Of a stretch of DNA of 11,099 nucleotides, positions 491-6,568 are shown in pieces; positions within the stretch are counted from its first letter, which is position 1; the number at the start of each line of letters is the position of its first letter. The stretch comes from a virus. The notes below the pieces were generated by a model, which had not been told where the DNA came from, ran no database searches, and saw only the letters and a list, made by a program, of their open reading frames with translations. The stretch is from UHGV virus genome UHGV-0313617. One strand, given 5' to 3'. Made by a program: the position numbers and the translations under genes.

Positions 491-2755
491 ATGAGCTTAA
501 TTAAATTCGCTGTAACAAGACCCGCTAAAAAAGGCGAAAAAGCCAGGGCGGAAAACTTCCAGATGACCACCGATGAATTTTTCGAATTTATCAAAGATGC
601 GAAAGAAATCTCCTCGGTGCATATCAACAAGACGGAAGATAAAGCCGAGTATGCGCGCCGCAAGCGTAAGGCCGACGGCATCGTGGCGTATACCAGTGAC
701 GGATTGCGTCGTAAGACCAGTGCGGTGGACCGCTCGATCCTGTTCTTCGATATCGACCGTACCGACACCCGCACCCTACGCCGCTGCCGTAAGGCGTTCA
801 TTGACGCGGGTCTGGAACATGTGTTTCACACCACAACCGGCGACCGTCACCCGCTTAAAGGTGGAACGCGTTGCGCTCGATTCCTGGTGCTCACTGACAA
901 GCCTGTACCGGCTGAAGACCTGGGCCGCGTCCAGTATGCACTATTACACCAACTGGGTCTGTCAGATGTGGACTTCGACGATTGCACGAAAGACACAAAC
1001 CGCCTGATGTACCTGCCACACCAGCAGTCTGTTATTAAGTGCCACTATGGCAAGCGCGCCCGCGTCCGTCGTCTGCTCCGCCTGGCTGACAAGCTGGGGG
1101 TGGAAAAAGAGGAAGTACGCCGCGAGCTTACCCAGGGCGACGACGCAGTGGCAGACGGTATTCTGGACTGGTGCTTCCAGGCAGGATTCGAGGAGTTATC
1201 TTCCGGGCGGGGCTATGAAGTGCCGTGCCCGAACGAACATCTGCACAGCGGCGAAGGGTCCACCGCTATTATGGTCAAGGATGGCGAGATCCGTTTCAAG
1301 TGTATGCACACCGGCAACGAGTGTTGCTCGGAACTGAACAGACACCAGCACCTGGCGCTGCGTCTTATCGGGATCCCGGACCACCTGAACGTCGAGCCAC
1401 ACAATATGTCCCGTAAGCAAATCGCCGCCATCCTTCCGGGGCTGGACGACGAGGAAGTCGAATCCTTATATGAACATATTGTTGATGCGGTTGGCGACGG
1501 CGAAGAATACGGCGTGTGCACCGATGCGGATCTGGATAACGAGCCGGTTGCGCTGTTCAGTAAGCACGACCCGATTATCGAGGGGTTGATTAACTTTAAA
1601 TCGACCTGGTACATGGCGGGTGAGTCGAATATAGGTAAGTCTTTCTACGTGCTGGGCCAGATGGGCGCGGTTGCCGCGGGTATTCCGTTTGGCGGTGCGA
1701 AGGTCGTCCAGTCTCATTGCTTCTATTTTGACGCGGAAGGTGGCGAAGCCTCCAACCAGCGTAAAGAAGCATTGCAGATTAAATATGAGCACGACCTGGA
1801 CAAGCTGCACATTATAGACCTGCAGTCACGCGGCTGGGATATCACCAGCAAATCAGGCTTGCGCGAAGTTATCAGCTTTATCAACCGCACCGCTAACGGC
1901 GAACCGGTTGGCCTGGTGGCGTTCGACTCACTCAACCAGACTGTTGCGTTGCGGTCCGCTGATGCTAAACCGTTCGACGAGAACAACGCCAGCGATATGG
2001 GTGAAGTGGTCAAAGCGCTGAAGGCCATCGCGGAAAATACAGGTGGCAGTGCGGGCGTCATCCACCACCCGGCTAAAGGTGCAAACGGCAGCAGAACGCC
2101 ACGCGGGTCCGGCGCGCTGCATGGTGCTGTCGATTCTGCGTTCTTCCTGGAACAGCCGGACGACAACCAGCCCGGACAATTGAACCTGTATCACGAAAAG
2201 TCACGTAACGGCATCAAGCAAGCGCCGCGCGGCTTCGTCCTGCTCAAGTGCAAGGTGAAGGTGGATCTCCGCAAGTCAGAAGCGTTCGAGGCGCACCAGT
2301 CCACCAGCACCGGGCCAGACTTTGGCGACGTGGTTGCCGGATGGGACGTCAAGCCGATTGCCTCCACGCCACGCGACGAGACTCTCTACCTCGTACCGGT
2401 TGCCCTGGCACCTTTCGCTATTGAACAGGCGAAGGCGGCGGGCAAGGCCGCGGTTAAGGAAGAGAACACCGCCGGACCGCGCAACGAAAAAGAGAAAGTG
2501 CTTTATGCGGCACTGGAAAAACTGATGGAAGATAACCCGGACCATACTGGATTCAGTAAATCGGCAATTGTCCGCCAGGCGGGACTCGCAAAAGGGGGCA
2601 CGTCGACGAAGGCAATCGACGATATGGTGGAGCGCGGAGTAATAGGTTTTTATACCGATCCGCACACCGGGGCCCTCTATGGGTCGTCTAATTTGGTCAT
2701 CAAATCGGATATCCCTATCACGCTTTCAGCGACCGATGACGATTTAAAAGATTAA
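491..2755 (+). CDS. Replication protein: primase-polymerase-like N-terminal domain, Cys/His zinc-ribbon, RecA-like (AAA_25/RepA-type) ATPase, C-terminal putative winged-helix domain
   Basis: 754-aa ORF. Acidic DxD motif ILFFDIDRTD (nt ~741-764). Cys/His cluster CPNEHLHSG...FKCMHTGNECC (nt ~1225-1325). Walker A GESNIGKS (nt 1619-1642) and Walker B-like LVAFDSL. C-terminal ~100 aa look like a small helical DNA-binding domain. Confidence 0.85.
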   Translation: MSLIKFAVTRPAKKGEKARAENFQMTTDEFFEFIKDAKEISSVHINKTEDKAEYARRKRKADGIVAYTSDGLRRKTSAVDRSILFFDIDRTDTRTLRRCRKAFIDAGLEHVFHTTTGDRHPLKGGTRCARFLVLTDKPVPAEDLGRVQYALLHQLGLSDVDFDDCTKDTNRLMYLPHQQSVIKCHYGKRARVRRLLRLADKLGVEKEEVRRELTQGDDAVADGILDWCFQAGFEELSSGRGYEVPCPNEHLHSGEGSTAIMVKDGEIRFKCMHTGNECCSELNRHQHLALRLIGIPDHLNVEPHNMSRKQIAAILPGLDDEEVESLYEHIVDAVGDGEEYGVCTDADLDNEPVALFSKHDPIIEGLINFKSTWYMAGESNIGKSFYVLGQMGAVAAGIPFGGAKVVQSHCFYFDAEGGEASNQRKEALQIKYEHDLDKLHIIDLQSRGWDITSKSGLREVISFINRTANGEPVGLVAFDSLNQTVALRSADAKPFDENNASDMGEVVKALKAIAENTGGSAGVIHHPAKGANGSRTPRGSGALHGAVDSAFFLEQPDDNQPGQLNLYHEKSRNGIKQAPRGFVLLKCKVKVDLRKSEAFEAHQSTSTGPDFGDVVAGWDVKPIASTPRDETLYLVPVALAPFAIEQAKAAGKAAVKEENTAGPRNEKEKVLYAALEKLMEDNPDHTGFSKSAIVRQAGLAKGGTSTKAIDDMVERGVIGFYTDPHTGALYGSSNLVIKSDIPITLSATDDDLKD

Positions 2756-2830
2756 ATTCTGCGCGCATTGGTTGCCGATATGGGAATTCCCATATCGGTA
2801 AAAGATTAAATTCTGCGCGCATTGGTTGCC
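2745..2830. repeat. Two identical 32-bp direct repeats flanking a 20-bp perfect palindrome
   Basis: TAAAAGATTAAATTCTGCGCGCATTGGTTGCC at 2745-2776 and 2799-2830. The first copy overlaps the stop codon of the replication gene. Between them lies GATATGGGAATTCCCATATC (2777-2796), a perfect palindrome. Each repeat holds the 8-bp palindrome TGCGCGCA and ends in ATTGGTTGCC. Confidence 0.9.
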
Positions 2831-2915
2831 ATTTTGAGTGTTTTTATCTGGTCGTATTGGTTGCCGTGTAGTGTAAATATAGTGAATAGTTATGCAATAA
2901 AACTGCATAAAGTAA

Positions 2916-3018
2916 GCGGGACAAAAAGCGGGACAGACCAGGGGCGGGACAAAGCGGGACAGCACCCCTGTCCCGCCCCGGATGACGCGGCCTGGCGAGG
3001 AGCGGGACAGCGGGACAG
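2916..3018. repeat. Array of seven GCGGGACA(G/A) iteron-like repeats including a perfect 9-bp-stem hairpin
   Basis: Copies at 2916, 2928, 2944, 2954, 3002 and 3010 (forward) and 2968-2976 (inverted). 2954-2976 reads GCGGGACAG-caccc-CTGTCCCGC. An AT-rich stretch (2866-2915) precedes the array. Confidence 0.85.
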
Positions 3019-3024
3019 CACCCC

Positions 3025-3073
3025 AGTCTTTCAGACTAGACGGGGGGTCTGGCACCCCCCTCGTCTGAGACTG
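3025..3073. repeat. Imperfect inverted repeat / hairpin with a GGGGGG...CCCCCC core
   Basis: CAGTCTTTCAGACTAGACGGGGGG-tctggca-CCCCCCTCGTCTGAGACTG. The arms CAGTCT/AGACTG, CAGAC/GTCTG and G6/C6 pair, with bulges. Confidence 0.7.
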
Positions 3074-3232
3074 CATAAAATCCGGGATTGCATAATACAC
3101 GGCAACAAGATGCGAATTGCGGTCGTCGATGAACTAGGCAACCAATGCGAGTTGCAGAATGGTGGGTGAAAAATGCAGTTTGCAGTTTCAGCAGATAGCG
3201 ATCAACTTTTTCATACGCGTGATTAATATTGG

Positions 3233-3261
3233 TTGCGCCCACCCCAGCACCCTGCTATATT
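3233..3261 (+). promoter_or_regulatory. Promoter candidate for the downstream small-gene cluster, overlapped by ATTGGTTGC motifs
   Basis: TTGCGC (3233-3238), 17-nt spacer, TATATT (3256-3261). ATTGGTTGC copies at 3228-3237 and 3259-3268 overlap the -35 and the -10/+1 region. Confidence 0.4.
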
Positions 3262-3289
3262 GGTTGCACACCAACATGAGGACTGAACG

Positions 3290-3595
3290 ATGAGAGCTTT
3301 AATCTGGAATTACACAATGGCGGTGGCGAAGCTGTATGAAGCGAAGCACACAGACAGCAACGCAGACGACGCGCGCCAGGTTGTCATCCTGGCCCAGCAG
3401 GGAATCATGCACGCGTTCGATGATATGTTTGCCAGCCTGGACGAACTGGAACCGCTGCGCGTGGCAATCTGCGAATATGCGATGGCTTTTGCCCGCGAGC
3501 GCCTGGCGTATCGCTTCGGGATCGGTGAGACGGCAGTGACAAACGTCGCCCGGATTAAAGCCCAGCGCGAGCTATTCGCCCAGCTTGCGAAATAA
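3290..3595 (+). CDS. Hypothetical protein
   Basis: 101-aa ORF with a GAGGA Shine-Dalgarno 7 nt upstream of the ATG. No recognisable motif. Confidence 0.6.
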   Translation: MRALIWNYTMAVAKLYEAKHTDSNADDARQVVILAQQGIMHAFDDMFASLDELEPLRVAICEYAMAFARERLAYRFGIGETAVTNVARIKAQRELFAQLAK

Positions 3596-3604
3596 GGGGG
3601 CAAA

Positions 3605-3874
3605 ATGGACCGCAGACGCGCAAAACGGCTTTCCTGGAGCATTAGCCTGCATTGCGTACGAATATGGGCTGAGAATGCGAATGAGGGCGATTCTGTGTTC
3701 TGGAGTTATCGCGACGATGTGAAGCCATTAACGCAGACCCGCTACTTGCGCCAGTTCGCAGCGAAGCACGGATTCTATGTGCGGACTTCCTTGCAACCAA
3801 TGGGTGTTCGTATTACATTACGCCGGAAGCCTGCCATTGAGCGGGCAGGAAAACACTGGAGACTGAGCAAATGA
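3605..3874 (+). CDS. Hypothetical basic protein
   Basis: 89-aa ORF with an AGGGGG Shine-Dalgarno just upstream. Arg/Lys-rich. Its stop overlaps the next start (ATGA). Confidence 0.6.
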   Translation: MDRRRAKRLSWSISLHCVRIWAENANEGDSVFWSYRDDVKPLTQTRYLRQFAAKHGFYVRTSLQPMGVRITLRRKPAIERAGKHWRLSK

Positions 3875-5032: not shown

Positions 5033-5323
5033 ATGGATAAGCTAAACGAGTGGTTATTCGCCCTTGCGTGTCTTGCTGGTGGCTTCGTAGGCGCACGCAT
5101 TCATGGCGAGGCAACGAAAGGGCCGTTGAACTTCGTTTTATATATCGTGGTTGGCTTCCTGTGTGCCATATTTGGTGCTCCAGCTATTGCCGAGTGGTCT
5201 GGTTTGTCTGGCGAGCGCACTGTCGCCGGTTTGGGCTTCGTAACTGCCATCTTCTGGATGCCAATAGCTGACCGGATCCGGGAGACAATTGCGACGCTAC
5301 ACCTTCCGGGGGGCGCGAAATGA
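5033..5323 (+). CDS. Putative holin (three predicted transmembrane segments, charged C-terminus)
   Basis: 96 aa. Hydrophobic segments WLFALACLAGGFVGA, LNFVLYIVVGFLCAIFGAPAIA and VAGLGFVTAIFWMPIA. Sits immediately upstream of the endolysin. Stop overlaps the next start (ATGA). Confidence 0.7.
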   Translation: MDKLNEWLFALACLAGGFVGARIHGEATKGPLNFVLYIVVGFLCAIFGAPAIAEWSGLSGERTVAGLGFVTAIFWMPIADRIRETIATLHLPGGAK

Positions 5324-5565
5324 TTATTACCGTCCTGTTGTTTGTTATCATAGGGGCTTCGTCCCTGTTTAACGTGTATGCGCCGTCCGTCCAGGACGGC
5401 ATCTTAGGCCGGGTGTTGTATCTGTTAACGGCAATGGTCTGTATTATCGGATTGTTGCAAACAGGAGACGTATCAGATACCACCTGGACCGCGTTAATCT
5501 GGCTGTTTGCATTGCGCACCCTGCGTAATGCTGTTTTGAATGGGGTAAAACATGCGATTCAGTGA
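5320..5565 (+). CDS. Second holin-like small membrane protein (holin, antiholin or partner)
   Basis: 81 aa with 2-3 hydrophobic segments (IITVLLFVIIGASSLF, ILGRVLYLLTAMVCIIGLL, WTALIWLFAL) and a basic C-terminus. Overlaps both neighbours. Confidence 0.65.
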   Translation: MIITVLLFVIIGASSLFNVYAPSVQDGILGRVLYLLTAMVCIIGLLQTGDVSDTTWTALIWLFALRTLRNAVLNGVKHAIQ

Positions 5566-6043
5566 CAACGGTCTACGATTTACGGCAGCCTGGGAGGCAT
5601 TCAGCCCAGTGCCGTATTTCGCGACCAAGAAAGAGCAGGCCCGCGGCCTGTACACCTGGGGCTATGGTCACACCGGCACTAATCCGCCACGAAGCATTAC
5701 CCGTGCGGAAGCGCTGGAACTGCTCAAGCGAGATGTGGCGTATGCCGAGGACTGGGTGAACAAATACGCACATCCGAGCATTAACCAGGCGCAATTCGAC
5801 GCGCTGGTGGATCTGGTAATCAACGCCGGTCCTGGTCCGATCGTGCCGGATGACGTCGCGAACGATTTCGATGATGCGGTGCGACTGGGCGACTGGGCGA
5901 AGGTCCGTGCTATTCTGCCGCAGTTCCGCAAGCAAGGCGGATCGGTGCTCTTAGGTCTGGTCCGTCGCGCAATCGGCAGGCAAGCACTATTCGAGGGTAA
6001 GCAGTGGGACGTTGCCGAGAAAATCGGGCGTAACGCAGCATAA
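5552..6043 (+). CDS. Endolysin, phage lysozyme (glycoside hydrolase family 24-like)
   Basis: 163 aa. Motifs typical of T4/P22-type lysozymes as I recall them: N-terminal Glu (WEAF), GYGHTG, NQAQFDALVDLVINAG, and a C-terminal RRAIGRQALF. Positioned after the holin genes. Confidence 0.8.
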   Translation: MRFSDNGLRFTAAWEAFSPVPYFATKKEQARGLYTWGYGHTGTNPPRSITRAEALELLKRDVAYAEDWVNKYAHPSINQAQFDALVDLVINAGPGPIVPDDVANDFDDAVRLGDWAKVRAILPQFRKQGGSVLLGLVRRAIGRQALFEGKQWDVAEKIGRNAA

Positions 6044-6508: not shown

Positions 6509-6537
6509 TTGACTCGCAACCAACATAGGCCCATACT
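6509..6537 (+). promoter_or_regulatory. Weak promoter candidate carrying two GCAACCAA motifs
   Basis: TTGACT (6509-6514), 17-nt spacer, CATACT (6532-6537, poor -10). GCAACCAA at 6516-6523 and 6538-6545. A strong Shine-Dalgarno (GAGGAGGAGGA, 6548-6558) follows. Confidence 0.35.
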
Positions 6538-6568
6538 GCAACCAAACGAGGAGGAGGAGTAACACATC

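Follow-up and report, generated by a model that had tools for sequence, protein, structure and literature searches.

The 11,099-nucleotide stretch of the virus genome UHGV-0313617 analysed here (hereafter the window) contains an exactly duplicated 32-bp sequence with a perfect palindrome between the two copies, located at the 3' end of a replication gene, and the nature of this arrangement is the subject of the following analysis. A megablast search matched the window to 159 records at 85-97% identity and assigned it to the genus Dhillonvirus (HK578/SSL-2009a/SO-1-like virulent Escherichia coli siphophages). The gene upstream of the palindrome, described as a replication gene in a preliminary description made from the sequence letters, was correctly identified, as it encodes a primase-helicase according to both its Pfam and its PHROG assignment (Table 1). 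The first gene of the primase-helicase operon encodes a small helix-turn-helix (HTH) protein, which is a candidate binder of the repeats described below. The primase-helicase gene is followed by a non-coding gap of 534 bp (2756-3289), here referred to as region B, and the repeats and the palindrome form its left edge. Two open reading frames (ORFs) that span region B (2822-3169 on the plus strand and 2744-3100 on the minus strand) were taken as spurious, having no Pfam or PHROG family; the public annotation at this place is inconsistent, with genes on either strand or none. As some records end in region B, it was also considered whether the genome termini or a pac site could be located there; this was rejected, the record starts being arbitrary and headful packaging being predicted for the genus.

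The 32-bp duplication noted in the preliminary description was confirmed, with TAAAAGATTAAATTCTGCGCGCATTGGTTGCC occurring twice at a distance of 54 bp. The first copy (X1) begins with the final 11 nt of the primase-helicase gene, i.e., the codons of the terminal residues L K D with the TAA stop at 2753-2755, and continues into the sequence that we call the box. In addition to X1 and its identical second copy (X2), a third copy (X3) not included in the preliminary description was identified further downstream. The palindrome had been reported as 20 bp long. This core, GATATGGGAATTCCCATATC, is indeed perfect and has GAATTC at its centre (2784-2789), but the true length is 24 bp, with 2 nt taken from each of the flanking 32-bp copies. 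EcoRI sites (GAATTC) are neither avoided nor enriched in the window, where 3 were found and 2.5 are expected. According to rough estimates, about 1e-11 exact 32-mer pairs and about 7e-4 perfect 24-bp palindromes would be expected in 11 kb, and chance therefore cannot account for the duplication and the palindrome.

Table 1. Position of genes, repeats and other sequence elements in the window.
Feature	Position	Strand	Remarks
Small HTH protein, 109 aa	151-480	+	Pfam HTH_23 / HTH_28 / Sigma70_r4_2; PHROG 9366
Primase-helicase gene, 754 aa	491-2755	+	AAA_25 (Pfam); PHROG 3228 replicative helicase-primase
Repeat copy 1 (X1)	2745-2776	+	Gene 3' end, TAA, then TGCGCGC-ATTGGTTGCC box
Repeat copy 2 (X2)	2799-2830	+	Identical to X1 at 32/32 positions
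Repeat copy 3 (X3)	2834-2865	+	Older and degenerate, 63% identity; 3' part ATTGGTTGCC retained; in every relative examined
Perfect 24-bp palindrome CCGATATGGGAATTCCCATATCGG	2775-2798		Spacer of the 54-bp unit; core 2777-2796
ATTGGTTGC box	2767-2775 (+), 2821-2829 (+), 2856-2864 (+), 3138-3146 (-), 3228-3236 (+), 3259-3267 (+), 3793-3801 (-)		Exact copies
Conserved GTGAATAGTTATGCA, then hairpin TTATGCA-N7-TGCATAA	2882-2910	+	In AT-rich trough
Seven GCGGGACA repeats (six direct, one inverted)	2916-3017		68-78% GC; common to SO-1 region A
Long GC-rich inverted repeat CAGTCTTTCAGACTAGACGGGGGG...CCCCCCTCGTCTGAGACTG	3024-3073		Also in SO-1 region A
Promoter-like site for ORF 3290	3233-3261	+	TTGCGC (box end), 17 nt, TGC-TATATT (TGCTATATT) overlapping next box

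For the comparison of alleles the same site was read base by base in 25 genomes. The form present in the window, two units with a 54-bp period and the palindrome between them (array of 116 nt), was found in 12 of these. Six genomes (phiEco273, SO-1, EK99P-1, YD-2008.s, SM_A2, and one IMG/VR contig) have a single unit and no palindrome (62 nt). Two units with a 32-bp period, likewise without the palindrome (94 nt), are present in three genomes (Ioannina, Kenya-K19, and one LM40P1); here the units are separated by a 7-nt spacer, A(A/T)(T/G)(A/T)TGG, and the right arm of the palindrome is missing. The remaining alleles were each found in one genome: three units in PNS1 (170 nt), five units with a higher-order duplication in SM_S24 (281 nt), six units in Teewinot (315 nt), and a deletion form consisting of X1, the palindrome and the X3 box in LM40P1 OZ035780 (59 nt). 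The number of palindrome copies per genome ranges from 0 to 5. In SM_S24 (positions 880-1140 of the stretch read) the block X-palindrome-X-spacer is duplicated as a higher-order unit, and in Teewinot (positions 790-1100 of the stretch read) most junctions of the six units read ATTTTGGGAATTCCC, with one unit truncated so that CATTGG is joined to GAATTC. The junctions in these two genomes have the appearance of unequal crossing-over within TGGG, though both assemblies are short-read assemblies.

Database-wide, 157 records match the region and 84 of them span the palindrome junction (at least 80% coverage of the junction query), which leaves ~73 of 157 records, or ~46% of the genus, without it. 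In a neighbour-joining tree of the flanking sequences the allele classes are scattered independently of phylogeny. Sister pairs combine the window (two units) with phiEco273 (one unit), StarDew (two) with SM_S24 (five), and SO-1 (one) with SECphi18 (two); the nearest relative of the window, phiEco273, thus carries the one-unit allele without the palindrome. Because the allele classes are intermixed on the flank tree, gains and losses of units are recurrent and recent.

Head-to-tail units that are in register up to three, five and six times in relatives, that vary in copy number and that evolve in concert (see below) are the properties of a minisatellite or variable-number tandem repeat (VNTR). 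We consider that the duplicated gene end and the palindrome are probably one allele of a hypervariable minisatellite of box-bearing units, located at the left margin of a conserved control region, and that the palindrome is a dispensable spacer within it. The suggestion in the preliminary description that the duplication is a recent event or a recombination scar hence came near the truth, in that the window holds one allele of a copy-number-variable tandem array. The sequence of direct repeat, inverted repeat and direct repeat is also the layout of a transposable element of the miniature inverted-repeat kind (MITE) or insertion sequence (IS) remnant with its target-site duplication. This origin is extremely improbable and was rejected on dimensions: the 'insert' would measure 22 bp and the 'target duplication' 32 bp, far above known target-site duplication lengths, the units are amplified in tandem up to six times at a single site, and the palindrome occurs at one locus only in Dhillonvirus genomes, the two matches in each record being the two strands of this locus.

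Variants that distinguish genomes from each other are frequently common to the copies within one genome. In both copies of the window AAATTC replaces the AAATTT of most relatives, GGTCGCC is present in both copies of Envy and in X1 only of its near-twin Gluttony, and in PNS1 units 1 and 2 both carry AATTTGTG and unit 3 carries AAATTCTG. Over the 24 nt that start at the TAA, no mismatch between X1 and X2 was found in 5 of the 12 two-unit genomes, though the copies differ between genomes. To judge from these patterns, the sharing of derived variants within a genome is concerted evolution, i.e., the outcome of gene conversion or of expansion and contraction of the array. The second copy of IMG/VR 13837 is old and diverged, with CTAAAATGTTAATTTGTGCGCGC where the first copy has TTAAAAGATTAAAATTTGCGCGC, and its 'TTAATTTGTGCG' signature is common to the 32-bp-period alleles of the deepest branch. 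Concerted evolution explains the identity of the two copies in the window, and selection for identity is not needed; the exactness of the duplication, which had been taken to argue for selection, derives from repeat turnover or gene conversion instead.

The minisatellite reading builds on the observed anatomy, polymorphism and concerted evolution of the units and on the conservation and dispersal of their box. According to the mechanism we propose, each unit would contribute one box, (TGCGCGC)ATTGGTTGCC, and units would be gained and lost through unequal recombination or slippage of replication between them, with gene conversion homogenising the copies within a genome. The palindrome (22-24 bp) would be a mere spacer of the 54-bp unit, which may form a hairpin that the phage does not need. 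The box would be a sequence-specific, promoter-associated element to which a protein binds, and through an extra unit a bank of two to seven boxes would gain another, with at most a modulating effect. Copy number would then be near-neutral.

The palindrome could alternatively be functional but accessory, either as the operator of a dimeric regulator or as a 3' RNA hairpin of the primase-helicase message (terminator, stabiliser or RNase III site). Its symmetry is compatible with such a role: in addition to the perfect 24-bp dyad in the window, the 20-bp core is perfect in 7 of the 12 two-unit carriers, and the structure prediction called for in the preliminary description yielded a hairpin with a 13-bp stem and a 4-nt loop (minimum-free-energy fold) that RNA or DNA would form, the RNA fold of the 131-nt region having a z-score of -4.7 relative to shuffled sequences. 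So are a nucleotide diversity slightly below that of the adjacent spacers and the recurrence of the identical palindrome in E. coli prophages, both described below. We nevertheless regard an accessory function as distinctly unlikely. The palindrome is missing from almost half of the genus including the closest relative of the window, its copy number varies as stated above, and in the 5 of 12 carriers with an imperfect core no compensatory changes were found. The stem mismatches in bob, StarDew and Envy are all uncompensated, one of the two central paired positions is altered in Gluttony and IMG/VR 011231, and most units of Teewinot have a non-complementary left arm, ATTTTGG, which equals the sequence after the last box. 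The majority form of the palindrome ends in CGCT, and the CGG of the window is a derived change that brings the perfect length to 24 bp.

Searches for regulatory signals around the palindrome gave the following results. A consensus scan of positions 2600-3400 called no sigma-70-like promoter, and hence none that overlaps the palindrome, and inspection by eye revealed no -10 element at 16-18 nt from the TTGCCG at 2772. The stem would be adequate for an intrinsic terminator but is not followed by a T-tract, the subsequent sequence being TAAAAGATTAAATT on the plus strand and CAACCAATGCG on the minus strand, and a terminator scan was negative. A scan of positions 2500-3500 against Rfam produced nothing over the threshold and two sub-threshold chance matches. 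The preliminary description had proposed that the palindrome is the operator of a dimeric regulator or a nicking or initiation site, and had named relatives with one copy and no palindrome, and with no phenotypic difference, as an observation that would count against these roles. Relatives without the palindrome are numerous and all are viable isolated phages. Of the properties expected from an operator, dyad symmetry is present and conservation in relatives is absent (~73/157 records without the junction, 5/12 cores imperfect). Both proposals lack support in view of this absence and of the uncompensated changes, and the operator also in view of the missing overlapping promoter.

Nucleotide diversity was calculated for the 12 two-unit alleles, which can be aligned without gaps. 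It was 0.013 in the X3 box, 0.056-0.073 in the box-bearing parts of X1 and X2, 0.061 in the palindrome core (5 of 20 sites variable), 0.116 in the spacer between X2 and X3, and 0.200 in the pseudo gene-end of copy 2. The palindrome is thus not clearly freer to vary than the boxes. The diversity of the pseudo gene-end indicates that copy 2 is not translated. Helicase read-through into copy 2, which would give a protein ending in ...ILRALVADMGIPISVKD*, was considered and rejected, the pseudo gene-end being the most variable segment.

The palindrome core is not restricted to Dhillonvirus. Among GTDB species representatives GATATGGGAATTCCCATATC has 82 exact matches, 53 of which fall within ORFs of 100 aa or more that belong to many phyla and have the KilA-N signature ...LSxDMGIPISxLVQxxKGG...QGTWVHP; in these genes the palindrome represents the codons for D-M-G-I-P-I-(S). 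It is also located inside the KilA-N genes of phages 673R7 and PhiR5_2, and it is present in 1010 of 5426 complete E. coli genomes, mostly in non-coding DNA just upstream of hokD/gef in lambdoid prophages. Between these sites and the array 20-25 nt are identical, and the same sequence is coding in KilA-N genes and a non-coding spacer in the array. No homology of the array to KilA-N genes or to the DNA upstream of hok was detected beyond the palindrome, with local alignments ending at 23-27 nt. Under a null model in which palindromes are assumed to be common, the genome collection should contain roughly one copy of any particular 20-bp palindrome, and the chance that the Dhillonvirus palindrome matches one that already exists in coliphage DNA was roughly estimated at 1e-3 to 1e-2. 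A chance coincidence with a coliphage palindrome is unlikely but not overwhelmingly so, and capture of foreign DNA, convergent formation of the palindrome, or a common binding function are possible explanations of the shared sequence.

In the case of capture, the spacer would be a ~25-nt piece of a KilA-N gene or a prophage remnant that was acquired during break repair or template switching and was then amplified together with the unit. Over 23-25 nt, the sequence CCGATATGGGAATTCCCATATCG(C/G) exactly matches the KilA-N genes of 673R7, PhiR5_2 and Rouxiella, where it encodes D-M-G-I-P-I-S, as well as the site upstream of hokD/gef, and the CGCT end of most Dhillonvirus alleles, as opposed to the symmetric CGG, is the end found in KilA-N genes. 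Capture is unlikely all the same, as the similarity does not extend past the palindrome and the left arm could stem from the native ATTTTGG or AATATGG found after the box in alleles that lack the palindrome. Furthermore, with about one match expected for a 20-bp palindrome and 82 matches found with varied flanks, the few extra matching bases are not significant. It is very unlikely that CGATATGGGAATTCCCATATCG is a recurrent functional DNA site of enterobacterial phages, present in KilA-N genes, upstream of hokD/gef (~19% of complete E. coli genomes) and in the array. Were this the case, the sequence could be recognised by a DNA-binding protein widespread among phages or prophages, perhaps by a KilA-N domain, and in hosts with prophages virulent Dhillonviruses might acquire this decoy or recruitment site and amplify it; its presence or absence across the genus would then reflect host-dependent selection and not neutrality.

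The region may also be compared with quasi-palindrome template-switch mutagenesis and hairpin-loop inversion. By their sequence patterns, two features of region B would be expected products of intramolecular template switching, namely the palindrome of the window, which is more perfect than the majority form (CGG versus CGCT), and an exact loop inversion at a nearby hairpin with a 7-bp stem. The hairpin in question (TTATGCA-ATAAAAC-TGCATAA, 2890-2910) was compared at 25 Dhillonvirus loci, and the loop reads ATAAAAC in 12 and the exact reverse complement, GTTTTAT, in 9 of them. The mixture of the two loop forms among close relatives indicates putative recurrent inversion of the loop at this site.

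The part of the unit that is conserved throughout is the box. The 9-mer ATTGGTTGC is present in seven exact copies in the window, six of which, one of them inverted, lie within 2767-3267 at distances of 54, 35, 282, 90 and 31 bp. In the complete genome of SO-1 there are 14 exact boxes, and 10 of these fall into its non-coding part, which makes up 6.5%; likewise, 10 of the 14 are outside region B, mostly at promoter-like intergenic sites. Nine of the SO-1 boxes precede a same-strand gene by 18-192 nt, and four have TAnnnT at 16-17 nt past TTGCNN, for which the background rate is 3%. As judged by eye, the boxes constitute the -35 hexamer (TTGC(A/T)N end), lie in the promoter spacer, or overlap both the -10 element and the start site, and they are often paired at 14-31 bp. 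The layout of the promoter-like site for ORF 3290 is also seen at four SO-1 boxes; this site was not called by the consensus scan, its -35 element matching at 3 of 6 positions. A 21-nt module, TATATTGGTTGCACACCAACA, followed by GAGGA, is identical before SO-1 gp7, SO-1 gp49, and ORF 3290 of the window.

In more distant relatives, with 68%, 48% and 44% helicase identity, the box was found 3' of the primase-helicase gene every time and TTGG(T/C)TGC was kept. Its form is AATTGGTTGCCAC at 68% identity, where there is also a tandem pair of inverted copies, TTGGTTGCAA at 48% identity, and ATGTTGGCTG(C), fused to GTGAATAGTTATGCA, in Jerseyvirus FSL SP-031 (44%). On this comparative evidence the box is a genuine conserved cis element that is promoter-associated in Dhillonvirus. 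We regard it as the functional part of the unit because of its promoter-like placement elsewhere in the genome and its conservation across genera. It is probably a protein-binding or promoter element, and its putative binder could be RNA polymerase together with a regulator, or a winged helix of the helicase.

Two box-like sequences with one mismatch each, GTTGGTTGC and TTTGGTTGC, were noticed 22 bp apart on the minus strand of the window (6516-6546), adjoining a bidirectional terminator-like hairpin (AAAAAGCCCGG...CCGGGCTT) and with no -10 element evident; the same arrangement is present in SO-1 at 43627 and 43650.

The winged helix was predicted by an AlphaFold model of primase-helicase residues 604-754 (window 2300-2752). 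The C-terminal ~75 aa (roughly 2480-2700) are arranged as H-H-H-strand-strand with a predicted local distance difference test (pLDDT) score of 84-90 over model residues 61-120, and Foldseek matched the model exclusively to winged-helix proteins (MarR family, winged-helix domains of the origin recognition complex (ORC), ScpB), with weak E-values (best 0.025). The C-terminus has no Pfam annotation for this domain and no sequence match in PDB. A homologue search with the C-terminal 151 aa retrieved one trivial match, a full-length search being needed.

Given this predicted domain, the boxes could be iterons of the phage replication origin that are bound by the primase-helicase C-terminus, in which case the duplication would add an iteron and the hairpin could aid melting or priming. 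This explanation agrees with the description of the array as a minisatellite and gives the box another job; we hold it to be possible but doubtful. Iteron arrays are located beside or inside initiator genes in phage P4 (ori/crr with the alpha primase-helicase), in lambda (ori in gene O), and in plasmid Rep systems, and the alpha protein of P4 binds its own ori and crr repeats. The window may be likened to these systems by its short direct repeats at the end of a replication gene, the adjacent AT-rich stretch, and the predicted winged helix. The six exact boxes lie beside a trough of 30-36% GC (2850-2924), which is followed by the GC-rich repeat cluster; the box and the helicase are both kept from Dhillonvirus to Jerseyvirus, while the small HTH family and the GC-rich repeats change; and boxes flank the central cluster in all four lineages, one of them at the helicase gene's 3' end or inside that end. 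Unlike iterons, the box is dispersed over promoter-like sites genome-wide, at least seven of them intergenic sites other than region B, which is unusual for origin iterons, and it is neither origin-specific nor regularly phased, with 10 of the 14 SO-1 boxes elsewhere and the irregular spacing given above. The weak E-values of the winged-helix matches also stand against this explanation, as does the minimum of the cumulative GC skew of SO-1, which lies near 37 kb in a divergent promoter region ~3 kb upstream of region B and is confounded by gene orientation. No experimental mapping of an origin for the genus was found in the literature.

Several points weigh against the minisatellite with a dispensable palindrome as set out above. 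The high copy numbers rest on assemblies of short reads; for Teewinot these were 150 bp long, too short for its 315-bp array, SM_S24 is also a short-read assembly, and counts above three are uncertain. One- and two-unit alleles fit inside single reads and were found in dozens of independent records. The palindrome core is less variable (5/20 sites) than the neighbouring spacers (17/35), which weakly suggests that it is under slight constraint (Fisher p ~0.08, rough estimate), and turnover of a minisatellite does not account for the origin of the 22-nt spacer. In addition, no -10 element can be recognised for the three boxes on the left, which end in TTGCC and are not ordinary promoters, and the protein that binds the box is putative.

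With bacterial and phage VNTRs the array has in common the head-to-tail units, a copy number that varies between close relatives, concerted evolution, and a putative binding site in each unit, and it is also similar to promoter-proximal variable arrays, of which the ctxAB promoter with its TTTTGAT heptads is an example. It differs from VNTRs in the length of the unit (54 or 32 bp), the overlap with the stop codon of a gene, and the perfect palindrome contained in it. The feature is therefore a further case of something already known, namely a tandem repeat of variable copy number within the control region of a phage, and its importance is modest. For annotation it implies that a striking palindrome with exact flanking repeats is here the product of repeat turnover and not a regulatory site, and that the ATTGGTTGC box and the GTGAATAGTTATGCA hairpin module make up the conserved signal of the control region. 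For strain typing the array offers a practical marker, and it is a warning for short-read assemblies of these phages.

The comparison also delimits a conserved non-coding control region 3' of the primase-helicase gene for Dhillonvirus and Jerseyvirus, with three separable repeat families. From left to right, region B contains three direct boxes, the AT-rich trough with GTGAATAGTTATGCA and the small hairpin, the GCGGGACA repeats, the GC-rich inverted repeat, one inverted box, and two direct boxes. The GTGAATAGTTAT motif was also found in Jerseyvirus. In the relatives with 68%, 48% and 44% helicase identity the gene order of small HTH protein, primase-helicase and long non-coding gap is retained (positions 5190-5710, 5250-5880 and 5240-5620 of the respective stretches read), and the GC-rich repeats (GCGGGACA, TTGCGAGT, GGGGGAGA) and the small HTH protein's family (HTH_23, HTH_3, HTH_31) switch together, which suggests that repeats and HTH protein may be a matched pair. 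The pattern across genera thus suggests protein-DNA pairings, one between the helicase and the box that is kept alongside it, the other between the small HTH protein and the GC-rich repeats, which vary together.

An orthologous non-coding region 3' of the primase-helicase gene is known from the Sodalis phage SO-1 (GenBank GQ502199, 40178-40657), where it was annotated by the depositors as region B with 'direct, inverted and palindromic repeat sequences; sequence similarity with region A'. Boxes, GCGGGACA cluster and GC-rich hairpin are present there as in the window, the difference being the one-unit allele without the palindrome; the part of the annotation that was read does not mention copy-number polymorphism. 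A literature search for a paper on SO-1 region B or for work on origins, promoters or repeats of Dhillonvirus found nothing specific. Region A of SO-1 (11214-11597), upstream of the tape-measure gene, is a second copy of the module that lies outside the window; it consists of a GCGGGACA cluster, a GC-rich inverted repeat (CAGTCTTTCAGACTAGACGGGGG...CCCCCTCGTCTGAGACTG) and CTGCATAA motifs, without ATTGGTTGC boxes.

A tandem duplication of another kind was observed in phage bob, where 77 bp inside the primase-helicase coding region (positions 729-883 of the stretch read) are duplicated and annotated as repeat_region. This duplication is either a true variant or an assembly artefact. The annotated coding sequence of bob stops ~50 nt short of the usual stop, which is consistent with a frameshift.

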